Shown here: positions 4,997-22,471 of the stretch, in pieces
How the letters are laid out: each line of letters starts with the position of its first letter
Numbering within the stretch: position 1 is the stretch's first letter
Source: an uncultured Thermoplasmata archaeon
GTDB lineage: Archaea > Thermoplasmatota > Thermoplasmata > UBA10834
Assembly: GCA_963748615.1 (NCBI GenBank)
Contig: CAVVJQ010000003.1
Location: 97,082 to 161,081 of the forward strand
Length of the DNA stretch: 64,000 bases
Direction of reading: 5' to 3'
Notes under the pieces: model-generated
Database searches by the model: none
Told to the model about the DNA's origin: nothing
What the model saw: the letters and a program-made list of their open reading frames with translations, nothing else
Position numbers and translations under genes: made by a program

Positions 4997-7900
4997 TCAG
5001 GATCCCTTGTCGAGGATGTCGACCCATTCCGCTTCTCCGATCTCTTCCTCGGCCTGCCAGGAACCGGGCTTGAACTCGTTTGACATGAATGTCTGCAGCA
5101 TCTCCTGCACGCCCTTGAGCGACTTCATCGTTCCGTTCCAGCGAATGATCCTATCGGCAAACCTCTCCTCGATGTCACGGAGCAGCATCGCAAGGGATGT
5201 GAAGATCTCCTTTCGTGGCCAACCCGAGTAGATCATGGCGATGTACACGGACTTCCCCTTCTCGATGATGACGCTCTTGTCGCCGATCTCGAGCTTCTTC
5301 AGCCCTACTTCACCTTGTTGGAAAGAATCACGCACGAATTCCTGAACAGCAGTGAACATTGCGCTCACCACATCATTGTCCATGTTCGTGTTTTCCTCCT
5401 CTGTTACATGGGCAATAAGTCTGCCATCATTGTGAATCAGGAAGAGGTTCTCAAGAGAGTATGGCCTTGGCATCCTCATTGCAGCGAAGTAGCTCGCGAT
5501 TCCAGCAGCCAGCAACACCAACGGGAAAGTGTACGGCCATCCAATCGTCTCGGCCATGGTCTTAGTCACGCCGACATTGAAGCTGACCTTATTCGATGTC
5601 GCGCCGTCTTCGTCTGTAGCTTGAAGAGTGATCGTGATGACGTCCACGTCATCTGGCAGACTAACGTAGAGGTAATTTCCGACGACGCTCACGTGCAAAT
5701 CAGGGGTTGCCGATATCAAGAGCGAACTGTACGGCGTCTCACTGTCGATGAAGAATTGGCAGATGATGTAATGGGAGTTCCTTGGCCAACCCTTGAACAC
5801 GAAATCATGAATCGGTAGGATGATCGGCGCATCATTAACTGGCGTCACTGAGACCATGACAATCCACGAAGCCCAGGCGCCGTGGGAGTCCATGGCTACG
5901 AATCCGAGGATTTCGTTGCCAGACCAGTTGACCTCGGCCGTGAAGTTGACCACTCCATTAGCATATATCGTGGCGTGTATGTTAGGAGCCGCACTCTCAT
6001 AGACGACCCTGTACGACAGGTCAGTGTCATCGACATCATAGAATAGCAGATTCAAATTCAGGGAATCATTGAGATAGGTATCCTCCGGAAATGAGAGGAG
6101 TGTTGGATAGGGAATTGGGTACGTGACCATTGGAGGATAGTTGTCGCTCACGACCACGCTGAAGTTCAGTATCGCGGATGCATGTTCAGGATCAGTGACG
6201 GTCATGCAGACATTTACGATATAGGGGCTCGTGAACGCCCCACCGCTAAGGTTTGCAGGGAAGAGCAGTTCAATCATTCCATCGGAATAGCTTGCATATG
6301 AACTGTCGAATGAGAAGGTCAGCTCCTCCAAGGTGTGATCAGGATCAGTGACGTACGTGTTCGCATCTATCGAGGCCGTCACATCGTAATGCACGTGAAC
6401 ATCATCAATAGGATCGATCGATGGAGCGTCGTTCACCGCAATGACCGTCACAATGATCGTATCTGTCTTGAAGGCCCCTGTCGGGTCCATCGCTGTTAGG
6501 GTACCCTCCGTGACTCCAGACCATTCGAACGGGGCGGATACGTAGACTTCGTGTGTTTCCTGACCTATGGATATCACGATGTTCTCGAAGCCGGACTGAT
6601 AGACGAGATAATCTTCGGGATCCTGGTCGAAGAAGAAGTCATCCAAATCAAAGGCATAGACATTGAGATCGCCCTCGTTCAATTCTATGTCTGGCAACGT
6701 GTCGTTCAGAGACGGTGGCGTATCGTCCGTCACCCATATGACGACATTGAGATAATCGGAATTGGTCGAATCCGATAGCTCGGCAGTGGAAGCATCAGTC
6801 AGAGTGATTGTGACGATTTCGAAGTAGCTATTTGTCCCATCCTTTTCCAGAAAGAGGAATGTTGAGATCAGATGGTCGAAAAGAACATCACCATAGTTTG
6901 AAGATTCGGCGAACATCAACAGGTCGCCCTTTGGGTTGTCGACATCTGTTACGTAGTAGCTGTAGTCGATAGCGTATGGAGTTGAGAACTTGACATAAAT
7001 CTCGGTCGGTGGACTGTGGACGAAACGAGGTCTGTCGTTCACTGGCTGGATGCTCACCATTATATCCTGATAGGTGGAAAACCCGTCAGGATCCCTTACC
7101 CAGAGTCTGAAAGTATCTGAGCCATACTTGTCAGATTGCGTATAGAACTTCACCAGGGCCTCAGATGATGGGTCGTGCGTGACCAAATAGAGCGAAGTAT
7201 TGACATCCTCTGCAAACCACTTCAGATTCGCTGTGCCGTTGGTGTGATGCCAATATGAAGTCAGACTCAGGGTCCACGTGCTATCTTCAGTTGCAATCTG
7301 GGTCGGTATGGTACTGAGCCTCGGACCATTGAGCGCGTTCGTGACTGTCACATTTATCGAGGTGCGTATGGAACCATACCTGACCTCGATCGCCCCTGAT
7401 TCCGGTATGTACCCGGCAGTGTAGGTAGCGGTGGTCCCGCTACCAACTATCATTCCCGAGGTGTTGGTACTCCAGGTGGCACCTGGCATACTGACAATGT
7501 TGCCGTATGAATCATAGCCCGTTGCCAGAAATACTTGACTCTGACCTTCTGGAATCGATAATGGTCCGCTTGGAGACAATGCAATCCACACTAGGCTTCC
7601 CGCGATAACCGTGATATCCACATTCACATATCTGCTGGTTACAGGGTCAGTGCAGTTGATTCCACCAACACCATCATCCAATGCGACGAAGGAGATGGTC
7701 ATCCCCGTGCCAGAAATCGTCCCAACGCCGCCAAACACAGACCAGGAAGGCGACCAGGAAGTGTTCTCGTTCCCGAGCGAGTCCAGTCCGACAACTGTGA
7801 AAGACACTATCGATCCTGAGAGAAGGGAGGTGAAGGGACCCGCTGGATCAATGGACATCGTACTGATGGGACCACTCCACACGTGAATCTCTGTACTATA

Positions 7901-9223
7901 GCCGAAATGGGAGTTCGAGGATGCGATAAGGATTATCATCTCTTCAGCAGCGTCGTAGGACTGGTTCTCGACCGAGATGATACCATTCTCCGTCCCATCG
8001 AATTCAATTGTTGTGACATTCAGTGATCCAGAAGAGGGTGTCATCGTCTCTGAATAGACGGACGAGATATCGACTGTGCCTCTCCAATTAGGAACAATCT
8101 CTCCGGCCGAATCCAGTGCGGTGATAGTCATTTCGAATTCCTCACCAGTGGTGATATTTGGCGGAGCCAGGACTTCAAAATGATCTGCTGTGACCACGGA
8201 GATCGAAGTTGTCAACCAGGTCGGAGTGCCCAATGCGTCATAGCCATACGCAGTCAAATCGAAGGTTCCGTTGCACAAACGATCGAGAGTGGTCGAGAAC
8301 AGCTTCCAGGAGGGGTTAGAGGACGAGTCCTGCGAAACCAGGGTCAAAGGAGCCGATGGGATGCACACCGTCCCGTTCCCGGAATATGCGACTTCGAGAT
8401 AGGATTCGTGGATATCATATGCTCCAAACGGGTTCGATACGTTCGCGTATACTGTGATCTCCTCGGTGTCAGCGAATACGGTCCTGGGTGCTCCAGATTC
8501 ATCTTCCGTCCATACATCATCGACGCTGATGAAGTCCACGGTCGGAACGATCAGATATGAATCGAATGCATTGCTATCATAGAGTATCATCAGACCATCA
8601 TTAATCGAATCCCCTCTCATGATGGTCAACACGAGAGAGTGGCCGCTCGACAGCACATAATCTATTCCTGGGATGCTGAGATTGTATGCTTTCCATGCCC
8701 AATATAGAGGACCCGTTAGCGCGATCGAGGCACTTCCCACGACGGTCCATGAGCTTGGGCTATAGAATGTGGATGGAGCCATGTCAGATAGCGTAATGGT
8801 CATAATCGATCCCGATTCGTTATCCCTGGATGCCGCCCAGATGTGGGCCGAGATATCGCCCTGGATGTCCACGTCGGAGTTCACAGGTGGGGAAAGCACC
8901 CAGAAATGCCTCCAACGCTGAGATGGGAGGTTCTTCTTGATTGTGATCCCGAGCAATCCATCAGAATCGTAGTCGAGGTTGCTGGGATTCTGAGGAGCAG
9001 AGGTGTTCAGCCAATCATAGTCTCCCGAGGAAACAGGAGTTCCTTCATGCATGCGCAGCAAATGGTTCCAGGAGGTCAGGGAATCTGCAGAGACGCTGAT
9101 GGGGTCGTCCCCAATCATAAGAAGGACTGGACCAGATATCATCAGTATTGCAAGAAGCACTGCAAGTGAGCCGCTCAGAATGCGAGCATGACGACTGCAA
9201 CCTCCTGCAGGAACTTCCTTCAT
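4997..9223 (-). CDS. Large cell-surface protein with Ig/cadherin-like repeats, a C-terminal TM helix and a cytoplasmic longin/roadblock-like domain
   Basis: N-terminal hydrophobic signal; S/T/D-rich beta repeats with VNDRP, DDTPP, VNDAP, DNYPP, VNDAP linkers; TM YTFPLVLLAAGIASYFAAM; then ~150 aa starting LFLIHNDGRLIAH...SAMFTAVQEFVRDSF. Confidence 0.85.
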   Translation of the reverse strand: MKEVPAGGCSRHARILSGSLAVLLAILMISGPVLLMIGDDPISVSADSLTSWNHLLRMHEGTPVSSGDYDWLNTSAPQNPSNLDYDSDGLLGITIKKNLPSQRWRHFWVLSPPVNSDVDIQGDISAHIWAASRDNESGSIMTITLSDMAPSTFYSPSSWTVVGSASIALTGPLYWAWKAYNLSIPGIDYVLSSGHSLVLTIMRGDSINDGLMILYDSNAFDSYLIVPTVDFISVDDVWTEDESGAPRTVFADTEEITVYANVSNPFGAYDIHESYLEVAYSGNGTVCIPSAPLTLVSQDSSSNPSWKLFSTTLDRLCNGTFDLTAYGYDALGTPTWLTTSISVVTADHFEVLAPPNITTGEEFEMTITALDSAGEIVPNWRGTVDISSVYSETMTPSSGSLNVTTIEFDGTENGIISVENQSYDAAEEMIILIASSNSHFGYSTEIHVWSGPISTMSIDPAGPFTSLLSGSIVSFTVVGLDSLGNENTSWSPSWSVFGGVGTISGTGMTISFVALDDGVGGINCTDPVTSRYVNVDITVIAGSLVWIALSPSGPLSIPEGQSQVFLATGYDSYGNIVSMPGATWSTNTSGMIVGSGTTATYTAGYIPESGAIEVRYGSIRTSINVTVTNALNGPRLSTIPTQIATEDSTWTLSLTSYWHHTNGTANLKWFAEDVNTSLYLVTHDPSSEALVKFYTQSDKYGSDTFRLWVRDPDGFSTYQDIMVSIQPVNDRPRFVHSPPTEIYVKFSTPYAIDYSYYVTDVDNPKGDLLMFAESSNYGDVLFDHLISTFLFLEKDGTNSYFEIVTITLTDASTAELSDSTNSDYLNVVIWVTDDTPPSLNDTLPDIELNEGDLNVYAFDLDDFFFDQDPEDYLVYQSGFENIVISIGQETHEVYVSAPFEWSGVTEGTLTAMDPTGAFKTDTIIVTVIAVNDAPSIDPIDDVHVHYDVTASIDANTYVTDPDHTLEELTFSFDSSYASYSDGMIELLFPANLSGGAFTSPYIVNVCMTVTDPEHASAILNFSVVVSDNYPPMVTYPIPYPTLLSFPEDTYLNDSLNLNLLFYDVDDTDLSYRVVYESAAPNIHATIYANGVVNFTAEVNWSGNEILGFVAMDSHGAWASWIVMVSVTPVNDAPIILPIHDFVFKGWPRNSHYIICQFFIDSETPYSSLLISATPDLHVSVVGNYLYVSLPDDVDVITITLQATDEDGATSNKVSFNVGVTKTMAETIGWPYTFPLVLLAAGIASYFAAMRMPRPYSLENLFLIHNDGRLIAHVTEEENTNMDNDVVSAMFTAVQEFVRDSFQQGEVGLKKLEIGDKSVIIEKGKSVYIAMIYSGWPRKEIFTSLAMLLRDIEERFADRIIRWNGTMKSLKGVQEMLQTFMSNEFKPGSWQAEEEIGEAEWVDILDKGS

Positions 9224-11154: not shown

Positions 11155-12477
11155 ATGAGCTACACCGACTTGGTAGGCTGGATGTTCAATCTTGAGAGAT
11201 TCGGCATAAAGCTGGGATTGGACAACATGCGGGAGTTCCTAGAAAGGATAGGGAATCCCCACCATGAGTTCCGGTCCATACATGTCACGGGCACCAATGG
11301 CAAAGGATCCGTCTGCACTTTCGTATCAGAGATTCTCAAGGCACACGGCTTCAAGGTCGGACTGTATACCTCACCACATCTCGTCGATTTCCGTGAGAGG
11401 ATCAAGGTCAATGGTCAGGACATACCGGAAGATGCCGTGGTCAGAATCGGAAAAGAACTCCGCGCCGAAATGGAGTCCATGGCGAGAGAAAGCACGGATA
11501 AGCAATTGACTTTCTTCGAATTCACGACCGGGCTCGCATTCAGATACTTTGCCGAGGAGAAAGTGGATTTTGTTGTCGCTGAGGTAGGCATGGGGGGAAG
11601 GCTCGATGCCACCAATGTGATCAAACCAGACGTGTCAGTCATAACTAGAATAGGGCTGGAGCACACTGACTACCTTGGCAGCACAATCTCCGAGATTGCC
11701 TATGAGAAGGCAGGCATAATCAAGAAGGGAGCTCCAGTCGTGACTTGTGAGCGGGATCCATCTATACTCAGCATCTTCGGTAAGAAGTGCGATGAGTATG
11801 ATGTGCCGCTGGTGAGAATCGACCTTGATTTCGCCGTCGATTGCATCAGACAGACTTTGTCTGGAACATCATTCAATTACTCAGGCAAGAGAGAGATCAT
11901 GAATCTTGAGACGGCTCTGATTGGAGGATATCAGGCAGAGAACGCCGCTGCAGCAATCGCATGCATGGAATGTCTCACAGAAAAGGGGGACAACATAACC
12001 GAAGAAGAGATCTGCAAAGGACTCGCAGAAGCCAGTTGGCCCGGTAGAATGCAGATCGTACAGACCGAGCCTCTGCTGATTCTCGATGGAGGCCACAATC
12101 CCGATGGTGTGCGAATGGTAATGTCGACTCTGAAAGCGCTTGGTGTACTGCCGATGACTTTCGTGATTGGCTGCATGAATGATAAGGACGCGAGGGAAAT
12201 CCTCCGGGCGATTGTTCCTCACGCATCCAAGATTATAGCGACCCAGGTTGACAACAAGCGTGCGCTCCCGGCAGACGCTCTATATGAGATCGTGAAGGAG
12301 GAGTTCAAGGGTCATTCATCCGTCTCGATGACTTCCTCCAGGGGGATAGAGATGGCATTGGAGAGCACTCCTGGAAAAGGGGTATGCGTGATAGGGTCCC
12401 TCTACTTGGTCGGAGAAGCCATCCAGTGGATGGAAAAGAATGGGCGTGGAGAGGCCTCGACTTCGCACAAGATATAA
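11155..12477 (+). CDS. folC: Folylpolyglutamate/dihydrofolate synthase
   Basis: HVTGTNGKGS, YTSPHL, EVGMGGRLDATN, WPGR, LDGGHNPDG and GSLYLVGE motifs. Confidence 0.95.
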   Translation: MSYTDLVGWMFNLERFGIKLGLDNMREFLERIGNPHHEFRSIHVTGTNGKGSVCTFVSEILKAHGFKVGLYTSPHLVDFRERIKVNGQDIPEDAVVRIGKELRAEMESMARESTDKQLTFFEFTTGLAFRYFAEEKVDFVVAEVGMGGRLDATNVIKPDVSVITRIGLEHTDYLGSTISEIAYEKAGIIKKGAPVVTCERDPSILSIFGKKCDEYDVPLVRIDLDFAVDCIRQTLSGTSFNYSGKREIMNLETALIGGYQAENAAAAIACMECLTEKGDNITEEEICKGLAEASWPGRMQIVQTEPLLILDGGHNPDGVRMVMSTLKALGVLPMTFVIGCMNDKDAREILRAIVPHASKIIATQVDNKRALPADALYEIVKEEFKGHSSVSMTSSRGIEMALESTPGKGVCVIGSLYLVGEAIQWMEKNGRGEASTSHKI

Positions 12478-12511
12478 ATGGGCCCTGTGTATTGAGGCGT
12501 ACAACCAGTAT

Positions 12512-12585
12512 GCGGCTGTAGTGTAGTCTGGTTATCACTTGAGCTTGCCAAGCTCAAAACTCGGGTTCAAATCCCGGCGGCCGCA
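12512..12585 (+). tRNA. tRNA-Gly(GCC)
   Basis: Cloverleaf: acceptor GCGGCTG/CGGCCGC, anticodon stem TGAGC/GCTCA with GCC at 12547-12549, T-arm CGGG-TTCAAAT-CCCG, discriminator A. CCA is not encoded. Confidence 0.97.
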
Positions 12586-12630
12586 CGTCCATTCTTTTAG
12601 GAAAAGGCCATATGGGCGGAGGGATATCAC

Positions 12631-13503
12631 TCATCCGGCTGTATTCTTCTTCAATCTATGCAGAGTCAAGAAAATCAATACAACAATGATTGCTGGCACA
12701 AGAACTGCAGCTGAAGCCAGGATCCAGATATTCAGAGAATCGTCCTCTACATATGGGCTCATCAATGGATAGAGATCCGCGAAAAACCATGAGCGGGACC
12801 CGATGAAGTACGTATCACCTATGCCATCGCTGCCGTCCAAATCCTGATTTGGCCCGCTTTTGACGTCTACCCCTGAATAGACGTCCCAGAAGTTGCCCCC
12901 GTTCGGATAACCGTCGTCGAGCCGCACGACATCGTTTGTCCAATCGATTGCCAGCATCAGGCTATCATAGATATTGTTGTGATAGAAACTGATGCGAGTG
13001 CAATAGCGCATTAACAGCGCTCCGTCATCGTTGGTTGAGAAGTCATTTTCGCTGATGGTAATATCGTGGCAATTTGAACAGATAATGCCGGCAGAGTTGC
13101 CCTCGATTTCATTTTCTGTCACTCTCCCATTCTGGCATGAACTGAACCATATGCCCGTGGAACATTCCTGAATCCTGGTGCCCCGGATAACAAAATGAGA
13201 CGTTGTATTGGAAATTCTGATTCCTGTCGATTCTGGAGAATTGATCACCCAATTCTCAATAACAAATGGGTCACTGGGGGATCCAGTTCCCATTCTTACG
13301 CCATTCTCCGAAGTGAAGTCGATATTACTATCGATGATAATCGCGGCATGGTCATAATGCGCTGAGCCTCGACCTAGGAAGACTGATGGCAAAGCAATGC
13401 AGAGAGCGAGGACAACGAACAACATCGCAACAAAGATCATCGTCAATCGGCTGCGTCTTCCTCTTCGATGATGATCGCAGCTGGAAGAGTCATGACTGCT
13501 CAT
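12631..13503 (-). CDS. NosD/parallel beta-helix (pectin lyase-like) surface protein with N- and C-terminal TM helices
   Basis: GI..S...N..I..N beta-helix repeats and the motif GGNFWD...DGIGDT...DLYPLM; hydrophobic segments at both ends. Confidence 0.82.
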   Translation of the reverse strand: MSSHDSSSCDHHRRGRRSRLTMIFVAMLFVVLALCIALPSVFLGRGSAHYDHAAIIIDSNIDFTSENGVRMGTGSPSDPFVIENWVINSPESTGIRISNTTSHFVIRGTRIQECSTGIWFSSCQNGRVTENEIEGNSAGIICSNCHDITISENDFSTNDDGALLMRYCTRISFYHNNIYDSLMLAIDWTNDVVRLDDGYPNGGNFWDVYSGVDVKSGPNQDLDGSDGIGDTYFIGSRSWFFADLYPLMSPYVEDDSLNIWILASAAVLVPAIIVVLIFLTLHRLKKNTAG

Positions 13504-13840
13504 TTTCGTGAGGCATCCCTTCCGTAAATTGATTATAGAAGCTGACTGCAAGACATTCATTAGATCTTGTGATCACACACAGACGGGCATAAGCAATCAT
13601 CAGGTCGGCCGCATATTCATACCGCCCAAATTCCAGCTCAGCCCATATGTACATGTCCGGTAGGGGGATTTCATATTCACCGGACACTCCTCCCCAAAAC
13701 ACCATGCATTCATCACCTTGATGCCAAGAGAGCAGGTAGGAAATCACATCCGAACTTTGGCGAATAACAGGGACGCTAGGGAGATGATAGTGTGCCTTGG
13801 AAAAAATCTGGCTTGAGTCCCAACCACCCTCGGACATCAC
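13490..13840 (-). CDS. Hypothetical protein or gene remnant
   Basis: 116-aa ORF filling the cassette between the NosD gene and repeat R2; no recognisable motif. Confidence 0.3.
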   Translation of the reverse strand: MMSEGGWDSSQIFSKAHYHLPSVPVIRQSSDVISYLLSWHQGDECMVFWGGVSGEYEIPLPDMYIWAELEFGRYEYAADLMIAYARLCVITRSNECLAVSFYNQFTEGMPHENEQS

Positions 13841-13874
13841 TAGGATTAATAAGCGCTCCGCTATAAGAGGTTGT

Positions 13875-13904
13875 GTCTAGCCACATCATTCTCCCTCGTG
13901 AATG
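13875..13904 (+). repeat. Truncated 5' arm of the tRNA-Gly-associated repeat
   Basis: GTCTAGCCACATCATTCTCCCTCGTGAATG aligns with R3 GTCTAGCTCCGGTCATTTTCCCTCTTGATTG. Confidence 0.55.
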
Positions 13905-13944
13905 TATCCACGATATACTTTATTACGCTCTAGTGCCACCTAGA

Positions 13945-14060
13945 AGGTCTAGCCCCCGTCAATTCCCCCTCTGATTGAAATCAGAAAAATGGGGACTGGC
14001 TAGCGCAGGGTTCGCGGCCCGGCGGCCGCACGTCCATCTTTCTCAGAATATGCCATAAGG
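13945..14060 (+). repeat. Repeat R2: hairpin + tRNA-Gly 3'-end copy + downstream arm (att-like)
   Basis: CCCGGCGGCCGCACGTCCAT at 14018-14037 is identical to 12573-12592. It is preceded by the imperfect palindrome CTAGCC...TCCCC-C-TCTGAT-TGAA-ATCAGA-AAAAT-GGGGA-CT-GGCTAG. Confidence 0.92.
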
Positions 14061-14112
14061 ACAGAATGAAGCTCTCAATGAGTCGAAGGCGATTCGTAAA
14101 CGGGCTGCTGGA

Positions 14113-14463
14113 TTACTCATTCTTGCTGTCCTCGGAGTCAAATCTGTGCTCTCCCCAACGCCTTCGCATCCTCTCGAGGTGTTTCGGTTCTCCTACATGA
14201 TACTCATACATCACCCAAAAGAAAATCAGGCAGCTCCCAGCAATCCAGCTTATCACGAAGAGCATGAGCTCTTTGGCGGAGAGCGCCTCCATTTCTGCGA
14301 GGATGCTCAAGACAATGTAACCTCCGCCTCCAACGAGCACAAGGAGAACAAAAAGAGCTGTCCTGTACCACTCATATGGCACCTTCTTCGGATGATACTG
14401 TTTGATGTGACTACTGTAATCCTCGAAAGAAACAAAGTTGTCACATATATCGCATCTGACCAT
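14113..14463 (-). CDS. Small membrane protein with N-terminal C2H2-like zinc finger and two TM helices
   Basis: MVRCDICDNFVSFEDYSSHIKQYH (CX2CX11HX4H) followed by two hydrophobic helices; GAGG just upstream of the ATG. Confidence 0.7.
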   Translation of the reverse strand: MVRCDICDNFVSFEDYSSHIKQYHPKKVPYEWYRTALFVLLVLVGGGGYIVLSILAEMEALSAKELMLFVISWIAGSCLIFFWVMYEYHVGEPKHLERMRRRWGEHRFDSEDSKNE

Positions 14464-14465
14464 CC

Positions 14466-14804
14466 TCTTGAGAATGACTTCCCGCGCCATCTTACGCGCC
14501 TCTTTGACTTGCTCCGGTATGGTGAAGTGAATTGTGAGGCCGATCACTCCAATTCCGATGAAAACTCCTGCGATTGCCAGGACAGTAAGGCATGCTCGCC
14601 TCGACGCCAAGAACGAAAAGGATGAAGACAATGAAGGCCTCTAACCCAACCCAAACACATACTGCGAGAAGCCCCTTCTTCTCACAGTTCCGTCGACCCT
14701 TTGATGGTATTCTCAGCTTCAATCAAGTCGCGGTGTGCTAGGTTCTTATGTTCCTCGATCCGCGTGCGGTGCATGCGTTCGAAGCAGTACTCGCAGACCT
14801 CCAT
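14466..14804 (-). pseudogene. Frameshifted paralog of the zinc-finger/2-TM protein
   Basis: MEVCEYCFERMHRTRIEEHKNLAH (14682-14804) has the same CX2CX11HX4H spacing. Its TM helices (GLLAVCVWVGLEAFIVFILFVLG; LTVLAIAGVFIGIGVIGLTI) lie in two successive other frames. Confidence 0.55.
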
Positions 14805-14891
14805 TTCCCATGCAGAGCCAGCTACCATCTAAACCGCGGATTCGCGAGTGTCGTAATAATCGTTTCTATGGAAGGCCGAGGAATGAGAATG

Positions 14892-15006
14892 AGGTCTAGC
14901 TCCGGTCATTTTCCCTCTTGATTGAAATCGGAAAAAGGGAGTCTGGCTTGTGCAGGGTGCACGGCCCGGCGGCCGCACCACAATTCTTCTGAGAAAAGAC
15001 CTTAGG
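14892..15006 (+). repeat. Repeat R3: hairpin + tRNA-Gly 3'-end copy + downstream arm
   Basis: AGGTCTAGC...TTCCCTCTTGATTGAAATCGGAAAAAGGGAGTCTGGC...CAGGGT...GGCCCGGCGGCCGCAC...TTCTGAGAAAAGACC is colinear with R2 over its whole length. Confidence 0.9.
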
Positions 15007-15037
15007 GAAGGAAAGGCGTCTGGAGGTCCAATAGAGG

Positions 15038-15571
15038 GTGTGTCTCGTGGCTGAGAAACATGTCAGTCTGATATCAAAGGCGCTCCTAGCGCCCTGGTTT
15101 GGTGAGGTCTACGACATCATTCTCACAGACAGGAGATTCTTATTCGTGTTTGTCGAGAAGTTCGGATTGAGCAACAAGCTTGACGAGAAGCCGAATGAGG
15201 ACAAATACGTAAATGATGATCTCGATTCCCTGACAGCAAGAGAGGGATCTATAACGATTCCCTACTCATCTGTTCAACGCATTCGCATGAAAGGCGTCCA
15301 CAAGAACGAAGGAGGACTGCACTACCTCTACTTGGAGTACAACAATCCTGATGGAAAAAAGAAGAAGCTCAAAGTCTTGCTGCAGAGTCCGACCAGGGTT
15401 GGCAGGGATTCGTTCTTGGCCGCTGTTAGGGACAGCGGAAAACTAGCGGTCGAACAAAATTCGATTCAGCTAGAGTATGCTAACAGCATCAGGCAGAGAC
15501 TTGAGAGGGCTCTTCCAACGTCTATCCTCGAGGATGCTGAGTGGCGCATTGAATACGCTCGCTTTCCCTAG
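15038..15571 (+). CDS. Hypothetical protein, possible PH-like fold
   Basis: YDIILTDRRFLFV...SITIPYSSVQRIRM pattern resembles bacterial PH-like domains; GAGGGTG SD-like sequence upstream. Confidence 0.6.
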   Translation: MCLVAEKHVSLISKALLAPWFGEVYDIILTDRRFLFVFVEKFGLSNKLDEKPNEDKYVNDDLDSLTAREGSITIPYSSVQRIRMKGVHKNEGGLHYLYLEYNNPDGKKKKLKVLLQSPTRVGRDSFLAAVRDSGKLAVEQNSIQLEYANSIRQRLERALPTSILEDAEWRIEYARFP

Positions 15572-15729
15572 TGAATCGGAAAGAAACCTCCTTGTTGAAA
15601 TGCGTCGGCCCATCACAACGACATCAATTGAGAAGGACCGTCATTTTGGTGGCATCTAATCTCGCATATTCCTCAATTCTTGGAAAAGGCCTTGTACTTT
15701 GATGCTGCTTCCCAGAACGGGGAAATGGC

Positions 15730-16320
15730 ATGGCTGCAAGTGTTCCGCCCATTGTAACGAATCCAAAATCGACCCAGACAGATACGCATATTCCAGATCG
15801 GAAAAATCGCAAACCGGTAACAATCTCATCATATGAGACGGCCACCTTCGCAGCTGCTATCGGTCTAGTATTGCTCATCATGGGACTTGCGCTGTCTGTT
15901 TACTACGGAGAGAGATTCATAGTACTGATGAATAGTCCTGAACAGGATATTGATGATTTCCAATCTCTATCGGATGTATCCAATGCGATGGAGTATCTTT
16001 GGAAGCTTGGCGATTTAGCTGTGGTTCTCTCCATTGTTCTGATGATTCATGGCGAGATGAACAGGCGGCAACAAGGTAGGAACGCCACACGTCTACGGCG
16101 AATCCCTCTGCTCAATGCCGAGCTACTGCTACTTCTGGCACTTGCTGCCATGATGGCATCCTTGATTCTATGGGTGTATCTGAGGGAGTTCGAAACCGGC
16201 TTTGACGGAGATCTGATATTGAGACTCTTCAACATAGCAGGCAATATGTCACAGATTGCATGGATTCTTGCGACATCAGCAGTTCTACTAGTCGCAAATG
16301 GACTTCGGAGCGTTGACTGA
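15730..16320 (+). CDS. Hypothetical membrane protein (about 4 TM)
   Basis: 196-aa ORF with four hydrophobic segments. Confidence 0.65.
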   Translation: MAASVPPIVTNPKSTQTDTHIPDRKNRKPVTISSYETATFAAAIGLVLLIMGLALSVYYGERFIVLMNSPEQDIDDFQSLSDVSNAMEYLWKLGDLAVVLSIVLMIHGEMNRRQQGRNATRLRRIPLLNAELLLLLALAAMMASLILWVYLREFETGFDGDLILRLFNIAGNMSQIAWILATSAVLLVANGLRSVD

Positions 16321-16354
16321 TAGGACAGTCAAGAAGCCGAACCCGCTTCCGGGT

Positions 16355-16445
16355 TTGATTGAAATCAGAAAAAGATGCATGGTTAGCTCCACCTCCAGAT
16401 GCATGACCCAGTGATCGCTCATTCATTTTTCTTGAAAAGACGTAG
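16355..16445 (+). repeat. Repeat R4: decayed copy
   Basis: TTGATTGAAATCAGAAAAAG core retained. TGCATGACCCAGTGATCGCTC versus R3 TGCACGGCCCGGCGGCCGCAC differs mostly by transitions. TTCTTGAAAAGAC downstream arm present. Confidence 0.7.
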
Positions 16446-16505
16446 AAACAGGATACCTGCGAAAAGACAATAGAGTTGAACTGCTATCGAGAAAGAGGGA
16501 GAGAA

Positions 16506-16739
16506 ATGACGAGTAGCAGAGAGACTCCACCATCTATCAAGAGTCCTCTATCGCTTGAGGCAGACTATGCTGACCCGATGTTGTACGGTTGGGCGAGTAT
16601 CCTTGTGGGCGTCCTTTCGCTGTTCATCGGGGCATTCATGTTGTTCATATCACCGGTCCTGTTTCCAGTTGCTATCATCCTCGTGTTAGGAGCGGTGTTA
16701 GTTATCGCTGGCACCTGGATGGTCAAAAGAGAGGAATGA
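16506..16739 (+). CDS. Small 2-TM membrane protein
   Basis: Hydrophobic hairpin ending in KREE; GAGGGAG upstream of the ATG. Confidence 0.6.
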   Translation: MTSSRETPPSIKSPLSLEADYADPMLYGWASILVGVLSLFIGAFMLFISPVLFPVAIILVLGAVLVIAGTWMVKREE

Positions 16740-16882
16740 GAGTCATCGTGAGAAGAGACCACAAGGGATGTAATGCTGCAGAAACAGAATTACTCCACAA
16801 GCAGTGTCCCTCCGCCACATCCTATCCATCTTCGGGCAACAGGATAATAAGGGTTCTTCCAGAACAGAGAATTCTGGGCATT

Positions 16883-18127
16883 CTATCTCGATCGATGAGG
16901 TCGCTCATTTCGTCGATTCGTGTTTGACCTTCTCTGACCTCTTTGTTGTTTTGGCGGTGGTCTTGCAGCAGCACCAACGGCATCTCTTGCCGTATTGGAA
17001 TGGAATGAATGAGACATTACTTCGATATTCATCTTTATGAGGCTTTCAATTTCTCTCAAGGCATCCCGTTCATAGCTCGCGCACAGGGAATATGCGGTGC
17101 CCTTCGCTCCTGCTCTTGCGGTACGGCCAATTCGATGGACATAGTTATCAATCTGGTCAACAGGCAAATCATAATTTATTACATGAGATATGTCGTCGAT
17201 ATCAATGCCTCTTGCAGCAATGTCTGTCGCAACCATCACTCTTGCATGTCCAGATTTGAAATTATCTAATGCTCTTGTTCTTTGACTCTGCGATTTGTTA
17301 CCATGTATAGCTTCGGCCCGAATGCCCTGAGTGGTCAGCAACTTGGCGACATTGTTTGCTCTTCTTTTTGTTCTTGTGAATATCAGCACACATTTCAGAT
17401 CTTTATGTTTCAGCAATTCCAATAGAATCGAGATCTTGTCTCTTTCGTCCACAAAGAGGACCTTCTGCTGAACTAGTTTTACCGTGGTTGCCTGAGGGGC
17501 AACTTCAACACGCACAGGATGATGGAGCAGGGTCTTTGCTAGTTCACTTATCCTCGGGGGCATCGTTGCTGAAAGGAATATTGATTGTCTGTGTTCCGGC
17601 AATTTCGCAATGATTCTCTTGACATCAACTAAGAAGCCCATGTCAAGCATTCTATCAACTTCATCGAGGACAAGGAATTCTAAATGGTTTAGATTCACAT
17701 GGCGCTGATTCATCAAGTCCAATAATCTGCCAGGTGTAGCGACAAGGACATCGACTCCCATGGAAATTGCTCTAACCTGAGCGCCTTGGCTGACACCGCC
17801 GAAAATTACGGTGTGCCTGAATCTCATAAATGAGCCGTAGGTTGCAAAGCTTTCATCTATCTGCGCAGCCAATTCTCTAGTCGGCGCAAGAACCAGGGTT
17901 CTGGGAGATCTAGGGATAATACGCCCAGGTGATTGAGACATTATCTGCAATAGGGGCAGAACAAATGCAGCAGTCTTTCCTGTGCCCGTTTGTGCTATCC
18001 CGACCAAATCCTTGCCTTGAAGAATATGTGGGATTGCCCGTTCCTGTATTGGCGTTGGCACGGTATAACCCTGTTTAGCAACTGCATCCAGTAGAGGCTC
18101 TATGAGCTTGAGATCTTTGAACGTCAT
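16883..18127 (-). CDS. rhlE: DEAD-box RNA helicase, RhlE-like
   Basis: Q motif PTPIQ, AQTGTGKT, PTRELA, DEVD, SAT, ARGID, HRIGRTARAG; basic C-terminal tail. Confidence 0.9.
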   Translation of the reverse strand: MTFKDLKLIEPLLDAVAKQGYTVPTPIQERAIPHILQGKDLVGIAQTGTGKTAAFVLPLLQIMSQSPGRIIPRSPRTLVLAPTRELAAQIDESFATYGSFMRFRHTVIFGGVSQGAQVRAISMGVDVLVATPGRLLDLMNQRHVNLNHLEFLVLDEVDRMLDMGFLVDVKRIIAKLPEHRQSIFLSATMPPRISELAKTLLHHPVRVEVAPQATTVKLVQQKVLFVDERDKISILLELLKHKDLKCVLIFTRTKRRANNVAKLLTTQGIRAEAIHGNKSQSQRTRALDNFKSGHARVMVATDIAARGIDIDDISHVINYDLPVDQIDNYVHRIGRTARAGAKGTAYSLCASYERDALREIESLIKMNIEVMSHSFHSNTARDAVGAAARPPPKQQRGQRRSNTNRRNERPHRSR

Positions 18128-18302
18128 TTGTTCCTCTCTCCAATCGTCATCCCCGCAACAGGAGATAAGGGTTATTCATAACTATGTGGACGGTGTAGGC
18201 GCCCATGCTTGTCGCGATTTGAACACAAGCCAGGCAGAGTTTCCCACAATGCCAGGATCATTCGAAAGCACAACATGTCAATGACAATCATACGCATCAC
18301 CC

Positions 18303-18746
18303 ATGGGCTTGTTCAGACGTGATGAACCTCCGAGTCGCCTTCCTAGGAAGACACGGAGGGCAATCGACGAGATATCTAAAGCGCTCGAATCATTGAGTAG
18401 GAATGCATCGGAGGAGGATCTCGCCATTTCCGTTGATGGCCTATCACTCAAATCTGCAATGGGAGACGGCTCCAGATTGACAGCTATATCGAGATGTCAG
18501 GATGAGGACTCTATGGCTCACATCGAATGCATTGCGTCCATATGGTCATTTATGGCGAAGACACTCAGGGAAAGGAATCGTATGCAGAACAGCCTCTGGG
18601 AACTCACCCCCAGAAACCCAGATTCCTCACGATCTGATCCGCAGGATGCGGCAGAACAAGTAAGAGAGCATATGAGCGAAGCACTCATCAAGGGCCTGAC
18701 TCTTCTGGAGAACGAAATTGAATCTCATACGCGGGAAGTGCAGTAA
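18303..18746 (+). CDS. Hypothetical protein
   Basis: 147-aa helical ORF with no recognised motif. Confidence 0.55.
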   Translation: MGLFRRDEPPSRLPRKTRRAIDEISKALESLSRNASEEDLAISVDGLSLKSAMGDGSRLTAISRCQDEDSMAHIECIASIWSFMAKTLRERNRMQNSLWELTPRNPDSSRSDPQDAAEQVREHMSEALIKGLTLLENEIESHTREVQ

Positions 18747-18849
18747 CCTTTCCCGGAATATCCCCTTGAACGAAACCTGGGAAGGGCCGTCCGCAATCAC
18801 AATGATCAGGATCGATGCGAACATCGTCCACGTGGGCATATCGATTGAA

Positions 18850-19146
18850 TCAGATCCGTCTCAGATTGATTTCGTATCTTGACGTCCGGCTCAGTTCATC
18901 CATCGGTATATGCGTCCGCTCAGTCCTCGGGCCTAGGATCGTTGCTGCCAAGACAGCATAGAGGATGATAGTGAATAGCACCATGATGCATGGCTGAACT
19001 AATGGATTCTCCCACCAGGGTTGATTGAGTTCATCAGCAGACAGCCTTGCAGACGCAGTCTCCGTTCCAAACGCGAGAAAGAGCACCAGAGATGATAGCA
19101 ATACCAGCACGACAGACCTCATTATCTGTTTGTTTGAGACACTCAC
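18850..19146 (-). CDS. Small hypothetical membrane protein
   Basis: Signal-like N-terminus plus a second TM helix; GGGGA SD-like and TATA-like sequences upstream. Confidence 0.55.
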   Translation of the reverse strand: MSVSNKQIMRSVVLVLLSSLVLFLAFGTETASARLSADELNQPWWENPLVQPCIMVLFTIILYAVLAATILGPRTERTHIPMDELSRTSRYEINLRRI

Positions 19147-19322
19147 TCCAAATCCCCAATAATAAAGACAGAGATTTCGCTATATTAAAGTGATTATGAA
19201 TCCGCCAGAATCAGGTCTAAATCAAAGACCAACTGGCAAACAAGATCACGGCGCTCGCAACACAAAAGGTATATCCCAATCCACAAGTCTATGCTATTTA
19301 GCAGGAATTTGGGGATTCGTGA

Positions 19323-20192
19323 ATGAGTGCGTCACATAACGATTCGATGAAAGGAAAAGTCGTGATGGTAACCGGGGCCACCGGCGGCATAGGCAAAGAG
19401 ACTGCGAAAGGGTTGGCCTACATGGGAGCAACGGTTGTTCTCGTTAGTCGGTCGATGGAGAAGTTGGCTAGAGTCGCGAGCGAAATGAAGTCTGAGACGA
19501 AAAATGATGACATCAGCCATCTGTCCTGTGACTTGACATCCATGGATAGTGTCCGCAGGCTTGCATCCGAGTTCAGGGAGCGATACGACAGACTCGATGT
19601 ACTTATCAATAATGCAGGGGAGATAATCAACGATAGAAGGATTTCAGTCGATGGTAACGAATACACTCTGGCCCTTGACCATCTGTCACACTTCCTTCTG
19701 ACATCGCTGCTTCTGGACATCATCAGAAGGAGTGCCCCATCGAGGATAATCAACGTGAGTTCAATGGCTCATATCATGGGGCACATAGATTTCGATGACA
19801 TCATGATCGAGAAGGGATATACTCCTGGAAAGGCGTATGGACAGGCCAAGCTAGCGAACATATTATTCACATATGAACTCGCGAGGAGACTCGCAAGCAC
19901 CGGAGTAACCGTCAACTGTCTCCATCCTGGAATGGTGAGGACCAATTTCGGGAAAGACACGACAGGTGCCTGGAAGCTGTTCATCTTGCTGAGCAAGCCA
20001 TTCATGATCAGCGCCAGGAAGGGCGCCCAGACATCGATATACTTAGCATCCTCCCCCGAGGTCGTCTCGGTAACCGGGAAGTTTTTCGCTAAGAAGAGAG
20101 AGAAGAAATCCTCGAAGGAATCATATGATAAGAATACAGCGAAGAGGCTTTGGGAAATCAGCGAGGAGTTGACAGGCACGAGTCATGCATGA
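19323..20192 (+). CDS. Short-chain dehydrogenase/reductase (retinol dehydrogenase-like subfamily)
   Basis: TGATGGIG, LINNAG, NVSS, YGQAK and LHPG motifs. Confidence 0.93.
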   Translation: MSASHNDSMKGKVVMVTGATGGIGKETAKGLAYMGATVVLVSRSMEKLARVASEMKSETKNDDISHLSCDLTSMDSVRRLASEFRERYDRLDVLINNAGEIINDRRISVDGNEYTLALDHLSHFLLTSLLLDIIRRSAPSRIINVSSMAHIMGHIDFDDIMIEKGYTPGKAYGQAKLANILFTYELARRLASTGVTVNCLHPGMVRTNFGKDTTGAWKLFILLSKPFMISARKGAQTSIYLASSPEVVSVTGKFFAKKREKKSSKESYDKNTAKRLWEISEELTGTSHA

Positions 20193-20284
20193 ATGATGAT
20201 GACCCGCACAGATATAACATCGGAGATCATATCGAAGGATTGCGAGCATCAGAGGACTGAATCATATCTTGAAGGAGGGAAAAC

Positions 20285-20575
20285 ATGAAATCATCAAGAT
20301 TCCCCAACGGCCCATTCAATGGCAAGATGAGGAGACTCGTTACCAGTCTCGTGTTGCCGATAGATTCCAAGAGGAGCGGAAGCTGCAAGAATTGCGGGGC
20401 GTGTTGTGAGTTCCTTGTCAAATGCCCATTCCTTGAGTATTCTGATGACGACCCACCGAAAGCAAGGTGCAAGGCATATGCGATAAGACCTCTTCAGTGT
20501 CGCAAGTATCCAAGAACCAATGATGAGCAGATACACGAACCATGCGGGTATCACTTCGAGCAATCAGAGAGATAG
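20285..20575 (+). CDS. YkgJ-like cysteine-cluster (CxxCxxCC) protein
   Basis: CKNCGACC...CPFL...CKAYAIRPLQCRKYP. Confidence 0.8.
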   Translation: MKSSRFPNGPFNGKMRRLVTSLVLPIDSKRSGSCKNCGACCEFLVKCPFLEYSDDDPPKARCKAYAIRPLQCRKYPRTNDEQIHEPCGYHFEQSER

Positions 20576-22471
20576 CGCATCATCAGATGATGATATGCGG
20601 GACTGCTCGTCCACCGTTCGATCGATAGTTCTTAGATACCCTGCTACCAATTCGAGGCCACCAGCCGTCAACAACCGGATCAAGCTTGCCTTCTTCTTGA
20701 TTCCTCTGTTCGATGCGAACATTTTCCCCAAGATACGGATATTATCAACAATGTTCAGTTCACGATTCTCGCCGAAATCGAAATAGTTCAAATCCACATC
20801 CATATTGATAGTGTTCAGATCAGATTTTCCTGGGATGACCTGGATATACTCTACCCCGTCTCGCGTGGTTTTCATGATCCAGCTGGTAACGGCCAGTCCA
20901 TTATTCATCACTGTGAGCTGCATCGTCTGATTGCCAAGGAGCCGCAGGAACGTGCCCATGTCGATGAGGTTGTGTACACCCACATCCCTCGTGTAACGCT
21001 CCACACCATGGTCTGCGGACGCCTCTATCACCGCCAGCACATGTTTCCCGAGGTTCTTGTTCTGAAGCTGCGAGCCCATCTCAACCGAGAAACTCAGCTC
21101 ATGGAGCCTTTCAGCGATGAATTTGGCGAGCGATCTCTTGGACGCATGCCTTATCATATGCATCCGCTCCTTCTCAAGGAACGTGTCTACTGTCCAGAAT
21201 TTGGCCATACAGATGGAGGCTAGCTCTTCAATCCGTTCACTGGAGATGTACTTTAACTTGAATATCGAGTGCATCTCATCATAACGATTCCAGTCTGTCT
21301 CAAAGATCAGTCCTTGGGCATTCAAATCCTCGTAGAATCGAGTGCCTGGAAAAGGTGTTGCGATGCCGTAGGCTGTGCTCGTAAGCCCCAACATCTTGGC
21401 ATATGCGGGGAACCCCAGTATCTGGTCTTCGGTCTGGTCGGGGAGGCCGATGACGAACGTCCCGCCTGCATTCCCGCCCCATCGTTTTATGTTGTTGACC
21501 GCTTGGACATGCACGTCTGTGCTCAGGCCCTTGGATGTGGATTCGAGGTCATCCATGTGCGGACTCTCTATGCCCATCTCGAAGCCCTCTATCCCCACTG
21601 CGATCATTTTCCGAATGGTGTCAGGGTGCTTCGCCACCGAGTCGGCCCGCACCTTGACGCCGAAGCGTATGTCGAGCTCATGTGGAGCCAATAGATCGCA
21701 TAGCCGATTCACCAGCGCGGGTCTGCCCAGGAAATGAGGGTCGGTGATATCTACGCTAAGGGGCTTGTGGTTGTGGAAGGAGTCCATTTCCAAGATCTCC
21801 GCCAACACATTCTCGGGAGAGCGGAAGCGCTGATGACCATTGCTCATGGTTGGTTCGCAACAGAAAGTGCATTCACCATAACATCCTCTGGATGTCGTCA
21901 GGACGTCGTAGTCCCGACCTCGCGACGTCCTTGTACCATAAGTATATCTCCTAAGGTGCCTGGCGGGAAAAGGTAGACTATCCAGGTCCTTGATGAACGC
22001 TCTATCAGGGTTATGGATTATTTGCTCCTTCGCCTTGTACGAGACTCCCTGCACGTCTTGTGGTTCTCCTTTTTCAATCAGCTCCCGCATGGTGATTTCA
22101 CCCTCGCCACGGACTATCAGGTCCACTTGGGGCTGCAATAAGAGTTCGTCCGCGATGGCCGAGGGATGATACCCACCCAATATGGTCAAGGCACCGTGAC
22201 CCTTGGCCAACCGCGCGATTTCCAGACCTTCGCCGTGATCCGTCGCAGACATCGTTATCCCCACAAGGTCAGGGTCCAGAGCCATCAAAGACTCCTTGAA
22301 CGTCTCTTCGAAAGGCCCAGGCTCCATCTCGAGGTCCAAGACGGTCACAGTGTCTGTGACGTCCTCCACCGTGGCAGCGATGTATTCAAGCGCAGTCGGA
22401 ACCAAGTCGAATGCATAGGAAAGGCCGTGCCTGCCGGAAGGCTTGACCAGAAGAACTCTTTTGAATGACAT
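20564..22471 (-). CDS. Cobalamin-binding radical SAM protein
   Basis: N-terminal B12-binding domain (GGYHPS, VRGEGE), SRGCYGECTFC cluster motif, GIES and TPFPGT; extra C-terminal domain. Confidence 0.9.
   Translation of the reverse strand: MSFKRVLLVKPSGRHGLSYAFDLVPTALEYIAATVEDVTDTVTVLDLEMEPGPFEETFKESLMALDPDLVGITMSATDHGEGLEIARLAKGHGALTILGGYHPSAIADELLLQPQVDLIVRGEGEITMRELIEKGEPQDVQGVSYKAKEQIIHNPDRAFIKDLDSLPFPARHLRRYTYGTRTSRGRDYDVLTTSRGCYGECTFCCEPTMSNGHQRFRSPENVLAEILEMDSFHNHKPLSVDITDPHFLGRPALVNRLCDLLAPHELDIRFGVKVRADSVAKHPDTIRKMIAVGIEGFEMGIESPHMDDLESTSKGLSTDVHVQAVNNIKRWGGNAGGTFVIGLPDQTEDQILGFPAYAKMLGLTSTAYGIATPFPGTRFYEDLNAQGLIFETDWNRYDEMHSIFKLKYISSERIEELASICMAKFWTVDTFLEKERMHMIRHASKRSLAKFIAERLHELSFSVEMGSQLQNKNLGKHVLAVIEASADHGVERYTRDVGVHNLIDMGTFLRLLGNQTMQLTVMNNGLAVTSWIMKTTRDGVEYIQVIPGKSDLNTINMDVDLNYFDFGENRELNIVDNIRILGKMFASNRGIKKKASLIRLLTAGGLELVAGYLRTIDRTVDEQSRISSSDDALSL

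Follow-up and report, generated by a model that had tools for sequence, protein, structure and literature searches.

What are the small, repeat-bounded groups of genes that lie downstream of a tRNA-Gly(GCC) gene in an uncultured Thermoplasmata archaeon, and how might they have come to be there? The stretch of DNA analysed, here called the window, is 64,000 nucleotides (nt) long (contig CAVVJQ010000003.1, positions 97,082 to 161,081) and belongs to a genome, G000, that comprises 1.45 Mb in three contigs and is 65% complete (other G-numbers denote relatives, and L-numbers denote fetched loci). In each repeat we distinguish an upstream non-tRNA arm (the P arm), a tRNA-like part (the core) and a downstream motif (P', about GAGAAAAGGCCATAGGGGCGGA). 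The answer that we favour, and to which we give an even chance of being right, is that non-autonomous miniature integrative elements, comparable to cis-mobilizable elements (CIMEs) or to miniature inverted-repeat transposable elements (MITEs), have formed an accretion island at the 3' end of the tRNA gene, from 12587 to about 16850 (possibly about 20500). The island holds three clear cassettes of 0.8–1.4 kb, each with one or two small genes, and probably five in all. The cassettes would then be stripped-down derivatives of ordinary tRNA-targeting integrative elements, and not a separate recombination system.

The tRNA gene is the only one called by ARAGORN in the window (63.3 bits with the Rfam tRNA model); it is intact, and direct repeats of its 3' end bound the inserted DNA. 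The core CCCGGCGGCCGCAC is found at 12573, 14018 and 14965 (three matches, against 0.03 expected; none of 100 shuffled sequences reached three), and the 20-mer made up of the tRNA end and the next six nucleotides, GTCCAT, agrees at 20 of 20 positions between 12573–12592 and 14018–14037. A decayed copy at 16407–16426, placed in register by its flanking arms, keeps 13 of the 20, and the core-to-core spacings are 1445, 947 and 1442 bp. Every core copy outside the tRNA is preceded by the same hairpin box, TGATTGAAATCRGAAAAA (at 13972, 14919 and 16356; three matches, against 0.01 expected), and P' follows all four cores, including that of the real tRNA. In a repeat search, the 122-nt units 13945–14066 and 14892–15013 proved to be 77% identical. 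A cassette thus has P' at its start, and at its finish a P arm of 45–65 nt followed by a 14–20-nt copy of the tRNA 3' end. A preliminary description of the window, made from its letters, had recognized this tRNA-anchored array with its spacings and both of its conserved arms, and all of this is borne out. So is the statement that each interval holds one or two small genes in either orientation, with which the list of open reading frames (ORFs) agrees, and that no integrase is present: there is no match to the integrase family PF00589 within the window coordinates, over which transposase and replication genes were not systematically searched for.

The identity of the core to the tRNA end falls with distance from the gene (20/20, 17/20 and 13/20 in the junctions R2, R3 and R4, respectively), and this increasing decay fits the serial insertion at the tRNA that had been proposed, with newcomers entering next to the tRNA. 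The array has a G+C content of 0.484, and from there to 20.5 kb the value is 0.477, compared with 0.527 in the rest of the window. The single regular hairpin of the arm is a 14-nt palindrome, CTGATTGAAATCAG, and a scan of 12000–17500 against Rfam (E up to 5) gave the tRNA alone, together with three sub-threshold C/D-box matches that we judge to be due to chance. In Gly(GCC)-type repeats generally (R2 and R3, and those of relatives and metagenome loci), the copy of the T-loop almost always reads GCGG, ACGG or ATGG, where the tRNA has AAAT. This substitution turns the core into a GC-rich near-palindrome (GCGGCC-CGGC-GGCCGC) that is conserved across genera, which would place the crossover 3' of the near-palindrome.

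What, then, is the P arm? It had been described simply as non-tRNA sequence, and it is indeed separate from the tRNA, but this needs correction: it is homologous to the last 45–65 nt, or to the immediate 3' flank, of tyrosine-integrase genes of about 370–415 codons in relatives, where these abut tRNA 3' ends. In this homology lies the novelty of the present analysis, tandem tRNA-linked islands and integrase loss being already known. In 11 of 25 fetched loci of relatives, a tRNA called by ARAGORN lies tail-to-tail with the integrase gene, at most about 45 nt from its stop codon. The integrase ends in ...GYA in 14 of the 25 (a typical tail is ...NSPLIExRxDYTGYA*), and the DNA encoding the tail, GCTCCG..TCAATTCCCC..CTGATTGAA....ACTGGCTATGC, is collinear with the P arm (ACTGGCT at the end), GATTGA being invariant in 12 of 12 cases (alignment A3). 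In six loci (L052, L053, L054, L056, L057 and L074; E from 3e-5 to 9e-3), a hidden Markov model (HMM) of the P arm alone, used on 105,544 bases, matches the integrase ORF over its last ~45 nt. Elsewhere the integrase ORF is followed by a non-coding P arm and then by a tRNA core in the sense orientation (a 370-amino-acid frame in G005, L116; L072; L073; and G006 C1), and the layout of R2–R4 is that of these four loci minus the integrase. In L058 and L088 the order is P arm, core, inverted integrase end, the arms forming inverted repeats around the core. The core begins a few nucleotides past the integrase stop or past the non-coding P arm, and the 370–415-amino-acid frames stay open.

The hairpin box is invariant across these contexts, even though the mean column identity is 52%. 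As it is conserved whether translated or not, we take it to act as DNA, namely as the integrase-proximal arm of an att site; and as the P arm corresponds to the end or flank of an integrase gene, R2–R4 can be read as the att junctions of tandem integrative elements that have no integrase. We have high confidence in assigning the junctions, as att sites, to a family of tyrosine integrases that target tRNA genes. Pfam recognizes only PF00589 in these integrases, plus a SAM-like N-domain in one of them; they miss all the NCBIfam cut-offs (XerA, 53.6 against 220), and their closest relatives in genome contigs come from Thermoplasmata or Thermoplasmatota archaeon MAGs (metagenome-assembled genomes).

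A XerC/D-like or SSV-type integrase co-occurring with the repeat had been suggested as something to look for. A family of tyrosine integrases does exist in relatives, but none that is both intact and matching was found in G000, and the family is not of the SSV type. The G000 copy, beside tRNA-Ala(CGC), is frameshifted, and its C-terminal fragment has relatives in 31 of 41 genomes of the family, many of them open frames of 370–415 amino acids. Three nucleotides separate the end of this multiply frameshifted pseudogene (C1 83298–84313; L010/L051) from the 3' end of the tRNA-Ala(CGC) gene, and the pseudogene heads a region of about 33 kb with four repeats. The cassettes, for their part, do not encode a tyrosine integrase of their own; their integrase-bearing siblings are to be found in relatives.

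The array had been described at the tRNA-Gly locus. It is anchored there, and the repeat is widespread both in the genome and in the family, and uses several tRNAs. A profile HMM built from R2–R4 and iterated on G000 gave 14 matches at E ≤ 1e-3 (the tRNA's own end, R2–R4 and ten copies distributed over all three contigs), with one further, partial copy at a weaker score, so that the total is about 13 copies; for nine of the 14 listed, a tRNA gene is no more than 8 kb away. The G000 copies have the P arm in common and vary in their cores, which correspond to the 3' ends of tRNA-Gly(GCC), Gly(CCC), Ala(CGC) and Ala(TGC), Leu being added when the whole repeat family is considered. Copies with differing cores share one 5' boundary (GGGGTTTAGCTCC) or one short form starting at the hairpin. 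In a BLAST search with R2, 32 of the 46 genomes of the taxonomic family, representing all four genera, were seen to contain the repeat, and the exact hairpin 20-mer was present in 89 metagenome stretches, a significant repeat match being obtained in 69 of the 80 loci fetched. These contain 97 repeats (82 of them distinct) with cores of Gly(GCC), Gly(CCC), Leu and Ala types, and include arrays downstream of tRNA-Gly(GCC) (L210 and L217) and of tRNA-Gly(CCC); copies in register downstream of the matching tRNA are found in L152, L176, L179, L210, L215, L217 and L219.

P' occurs at 16 sites in G000, and at several of these it stands without P arm or core (C1 63710, 74709, 171372, 173364, 174844, 466965 and 505968; C2 155892 and 156375). 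Two of the solo sites follow another shared sequence, of 40 nt, near a 188-amino-acid integrase-like frame (C1 173037). We also draw attention to a 'tRNA-Ile' with a 194-nt intron (C1 466186–466474; L011), called by ARAGORN when introns were allowed: the tRNA-like core of a repeat underlies this prediction, which is almost certainly spurious.

Comparison of the tRNA-Gly locus between relatives shows that both the number and the content of the cassettes differ. A FolC-like gene and the tRNA are conserved, and the DNA after the tRNA is present in some genomes and absent from others. In G005 (about 84–89% nucleotide identity in the flanks), a single 0.56-kb cassette has an inverted remnant of an integrase end on one side and a P arm on the other, and is followed by a DEAD-box helicase gene; in G006 the tRNA is followed directly by the gene for an 87-amino-acid protein, m87, which is fourth in line in the window, and then by a cassette X and a repeat; and G010 has a different first cassette. 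The locus has two repeats in G003, three in G024, four in G011 and none in G013. Cargo is also shared between loci. A tRNA-Ala island of G000 and an integrase-bearing tRNA-Leu element of G006 are 97.5% identical over 1221 nt (against a background of about 85%); sequence at C1 467k of G000 is 95% identical over 436 nt to part of the Gly array of G010; and that at C1 52k is 82% and 79% identical over about 800 nt to the Gly arrays of G010 and G006, respectively. The DEAD-box helicase of the window is 90.8% identical in amino acid sequence to a copy that lies between two repeats in another genus (L108, G024 C1 5127–6368), where FolC is 54% identical. An identity so far above that of FolC, together with this position between repeats, suggests that the helicase gene is likely to be horizontally moved cargo.

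Table 1. Coordinates of the tRNA anchor, the repeat junctions and the cassette genes in the window
Feature	Position	Strand	Description	Source
tRNA-Gly(GCC)	12512..12586	+	Anchor (attB/attL); recombination core = its last 14 nt, 12573-12586	ARAGORN, Rfam
P' motif behind the real tRNA (TTTAGGAAAAGGCCATATGGGCGGAG)	12596..12621	+	Left end of cassette 1	
R2 junction	13945..14066	+	P arm 13945-14007; core 14008-14037; P' 14041-14066	
R3 junction	14892..15013	+	P arm 14892-14954; core 14955-14984 (14 nt exact); P' 14988-15013	
R4 junction, oldest	16330..16450	+	P arm with intact hairpin box 16356-16373; decayed core 16407-16426 (13/20); diverged P'	
Cassette 1 cargo	12631..13840	-	309-amino-acid membrane-anchored beta-helix/NosD-like protein (12631-13560); 116-amino-acid hypothetical protein (13490-13840)	
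Cassette 2 cargo	14113..14828	-	172-amino-acid membrane protein (14113-14631); 48-amino-acid Cys-rich ORF (14682-14828)	
Cassette 3 cargo	15038..16320	+	177-amino-acid hypothetical protein (15038-15571); 196-amino-acid membrane protein (15730-16320)	
Fourth cassette	16476..16772	+	87-amino-acid membrane protein m87 (16476-16739), then lone P'-like motif (16750-16772) without P arm or core	
DEAD-box helicase, probably more cargo	16883..18127	-	Start lies behind a P'-like motif	

Among six cassette proteins, Pfam gave one beta-helix/NosD match and no family for the other five. A simple Kyte–Doolittle scan found hydrophobic segments of transmembrane type in four of the six, and it is from these segments, its one basis, that surface diversification, as the preliminary description suggested, could be envisaged. 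The two ORFs of cassette 2 together resemble a single 275-amino-acid open frame directly downstream of tRNA-Asp(GTC) in G047 (L141, C38), and the gene in the window may, to judge from this resemblance, be a split or broken copy of such a frame. Homologues of the 177-amino-acid protein of cassette 3 (27–37% identity) adjoin tRNA-Thr(TGT) in nine of 14 loci, in four genera (L128, L130, L132–L136, L138 and L139), often with tRNA-Arg(CCT) nearby; there are no P' motifs or repeats at these tRNA-Thr(TGT) loci, and we do not regard these homologues as cassettes: they look like a conserved paralogue. A viral origin was considered and dropped, as neither the hairpin-box 20-mer nor a P' 20-mer has an exact match in viral contigs, and PHROGs revealed no viral hallmark among the six cassette proteins, except for a weak beta-helix/tail-spike match (E 4e-4).

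Beyond the helicase gene, a stretch of low G+C content (16851–20500) runs on through three small ORFs and a gene for a short-chain dehydrogenase/reductase, so the island may extend past the end originally assigned to it. That this block, too, may belong to the island is suggested by G013, where the radical-SAM gene that occupies 20564–22471 in the window is directly beside folC. On the other side of the tRNA, the ORF list shows a frame of 1408 codons (4997–9223, minus strand) with an N-terminal hydrophobic segment and long repetitive stretches rich in Asp, Thr and Ser, which resembles a giant surface protein.

How might such cassettes move, if they do so? How the recombination proceeds, in which direction the array grows and whether cassettes move in trans today are matters that we infer. 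A circular cassette with the order P arm–core–P' would recombine with the tRNA 3' end, regenerating the tRNA and displacing older cassettes distally. As the cassettes have no integrase, movement would require one from elsewhere, supplied by a sibling element or by an extrachromosomal element, and in this respect the cassettes would be like CIMEs or MITEs; recombination between junction repeats could also permit loss and shuffling. That the cassettes are still mobile in this way is the view that we prefer, with our confidence evenly divided, to the view that they are relics, the preference being based on comparison of sequences. A bolder version, which we advance only tentatively, is that the arrays are an archaeal counterpart of integrons made from other parts, in which cassettes of 0.3–3 kb with an att module of about 110 nt would be excised as circles and re-inserted at several tRNA 3' ends by trans-acting tyrosine integrases, the arm site being the end of the integrases' own gene.

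The most serious alternative, possible though in our opinion doubtful, is that integrase-bearing elements inserted serially at the tRNA and were each trimmed in place, so that the cassettes are now dead, immobile debris. The shared cargo would then reflect the transfer of former full-length elements, or homologous recombination between repeats. The derivation of the P arm from the end of an integrase gene is consistent with this, as are the frameshifts in the integrase at tRNA-Ala(CGC), the presence of integrase-end remnants directly behind tRNA-Gly(CCC) and (in G005 and G010) directly behind tRNA-Gly(GCC), and the decay of R4 and several other copies; moreover, archaeal integrated elements without integrases are attributed 'presumably' to gene loss after integration in the available text of a review (PMC8371274). 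Independent deletions, however, should leave ragged integrase fragments and a broad range of sizes. Taking as intervals the distances from repeat to repeat, or from tRNA to repeat, on the same strand, we counted 24 in G000 and its relatives, of 311–12,983 nt (23 of them no more than 4.1 kb; median about 1.1 kb), with an integrase match in one, and 26 in metagenomes, of 191–6,553 nt, with an integrase match in none, so that 49 of 50 lack one; the loci had been picked for holding repeats and the metagenome set includes duplicates, so these counts are biased, non-independent and descriptive, which lessens their value for the view that we prefer. An integrase match lies within 2 kb of nine of the 97 metagenome repeats. 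A 44-kb stretch in G014 C8, between tRNA-Gly and two repeats, was set aside as a candidate for a single element, there being no PF00589 match on that contig. The common 5' boundary, or the common short form starting at the hairpin, across core types, and the invariance of the hairpin box among columns of much lower mean identity, are likewise not what trimming in place would lead one to expect. Mobility, for its part, would account for the near absence of integrase sequence between repeats, the small and narrowly distributed sizes, the arm boundaries common to core types, the constancy of the box, and the occurrence of cargo at different tRNAs and in different genera.

Several further observations weigh against mobile, site-specifically inserted cassettes. 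The m87 gene has P' motifs on both sides but neither P arm nor core, and the 95% identical block of G000 and G010 spans a junction instead of ending at one, both of which suggest homologous recombination among repeats; cores of more than one type occur together in some arrays, and certain repeats face the opposite way to the tRNA closest to them, which points to rearrangement or homologous recombination over clean site-specific insertion. In G000 (at 65% completeness) we found no close homologue of the integrase that is intact, the copy at tRNA-Ala(CGC) being the frameshifted one. Seven integrase queries, applied to 43 loci (30 Gly(GCC)-type repeats with 1.5 kb on either side, and 13 tRNA-Gly arrays of up to 15 kb), disclosed no integrase adjoining a Gly(GCC) core, bar one fragment of 71 amino acids. 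An inverted P arm was detected at E < 0.001 in only one of 31 tRNA flanks in G000, and in five others by eye. Every genome used is a MAG, and neither a circular nor an empty-site junction was seen, the short contigs of the one public run that holds the stretch (share 0.07) being uninformative on excision: there are 11 of them, with no joints and no informative loose ends.

Could the repeat instead be a tRNA-derived element of the MITE type, or of the type of short interspersed elements, that transposes independently of tRNA genes, the genes between its copies being ordinary chromosome? We consider this very unlikely. There are about 13 dispersed copies in G000, some of them inverted, one copy (C2 292.6k) is 16 kb from any called tRNA, and inverted P arms enclose the G005 cassette. 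Nevertheless, the cores match the 3' ends of specific tRNAs, nine of 14 copies lie no more than 8 kb from a tRNA gene, and copies stand in register downstream of the matching Gly(GCC) and Gly(CCC) tRNAs, in metagenome contigs too; the arm is an integrase gene end, and the DNA between repeats is missing from the same locus in close relatives. The cassettes also carry genes, and their ends in the window, P' and P arm, are not inverted repeats, the G005-type cassette alone having inverted P arms.

The likeness to integrons that the preliminary description proposed, with a tRNA as the attachment site, holds at the level of function (small cassettes are ordered at a fixed site, presumably with the newest nearest, and vary between strains) and for the tRNA site itself, but a true integron, or a cluster of attC sites lacking an integron integrase (CALIN), is scarcely credible. 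The locus recalls integrons in its variable arrays and in the alternation of cassettes measuring about 1 kb with repeats of about 110 nt, and integrons have been reported in archaeal MAGs, according to the available text of bioRxiv 10.1101/2022.02.06.479319. Against this, the associated integrases score 22.8 and 32.4 bits with the integron-integrase model TIGR02249, for which the cut-off is 265. The RNAalifold consensus stem has just 4 bp in place of the long imperfect hairpin of attC. There is no IntI and no attI beside an intI gene, the site being the 3' end of a tRNA, and the cassette genes are not uniformly oriented. The folding of 24 copies (four pairs, -3.39 kcal/mol) also led us to abandon a structured-RNA or single-stranded-DNA role for the arm. 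Readings as a split tRNA, a tRNA pseudogene or a CRISPR-like array were discarded as well, only the last 14–30 nt being tRNA-like and the 'spacers' being genes, and a casposon-like target duplication was dropped after the arm had been matched to the ends of tyrosine-integrase genes. An assembly artefact (collapsed or chimeric repeats) can be given hardly any weight: many of the repeats in relatives do lie at contig ends, but the window is in a 390-kb contig, its repeats are at most 122 nt long and 74–100% identical, and equivalent arrays are present in independent assemblies of four genera and in metagenome contigs. Contigs of 151 nt from the public run mentioned above match 12580–12730 and 14950–15100 with no and one difference, respectively, although that run may be the source sample and so not independent.

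Among known systems, the nearest concept is that of the CIME. CIMEs, and the tandem accretion of integrative and conjugative or integrative and mobilizable elements, are known at streptococcal tRNA genes (PMC5704250, in the text available). To judge from their sequence, the cassettes of the window would be comparable in keeping att sites on both sides and in having neither integration nor transfer genes; they differ in being archaeal, far smaller (median about 1.1 kb), very numerous and distributed across genera, in having no conjugation module, and in that the arm retained is the integrase gene's own end. The tycheposon islands of Prochlorococcus, as far as the available text of their description goes, are tRNA-anchored, with repeated partial tRNAs, with newcomers that displace older tandem elements, and with degenerate remnants containing fragmented integrases as well as adaptive cargo; tycheposons themselves are about 10–20 kb long, and carry an integrase and often replication genes (bioRxiv 10.1101/2020.12.28.424599). 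The islands described here share with these the tRNA anchor, the partial-tRNA repeats, the tandem arrangement and the remnants, and differ in that 49 of 50 intervals have no integrase match and each has a conserved att module of about 110 nt.

'Gene capture' in archaea has reportedly been described by She et al. Archaeal elements with tyrosine integrases (SSV-type 'suicidal' and pNOB8-type) integrate at tRNA 3' ends, may be integrated in tandem, and may be without an integrase after gene loss (PMC8371274, in the text available). The cassettes resemble these in their target, in being tandem at one locus and in including members without integrase; but the core in the present family is immediately beyond the integrase ORF, which therefore stays in one piece, and the partition characteristic of the SSV type does not apply. 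Regular arrays of miniature integrase-less cassettes are not among the elements described in the available part of that review, nor did a limited literature search bring to light a published description of such arrays in archaea.

Even if the cassettes were relics, the repeats would mark the history of integration in these genomes, and cause breaks in the assembly of these MAGs. Many repeats in relatives are about 100–1000 nt from contig ends (for example in G022 C35, G006 C4, G010 C8 and G054 C8), from which it appears that the repeat family interrupts short-read assemblies of the lineage. A concrete att-site architecture for an uncharacterised family of archaeal integrases is provided by the conserved box (TGATTGAA...CTGGCT) and the known core next to it. 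If the cassettes are mobile, they would constitute a gene-shuffling platform in a widespread lineage of uncultured archaea, as compact as an integron and derived from ordinary tRNA-targeting integrases; this would account for the small accessory genes that fill tRNA-linked islands, and for the passage of a housekeeping-type helicase between genera. If, further, the arrays are indeed a counterpart of integrons, then the uncultured Thermoplasmata of sediments would have at their disposal a pool of small cargo, including membrane proteins and a DEAD-box helicase, that is shared across genera.

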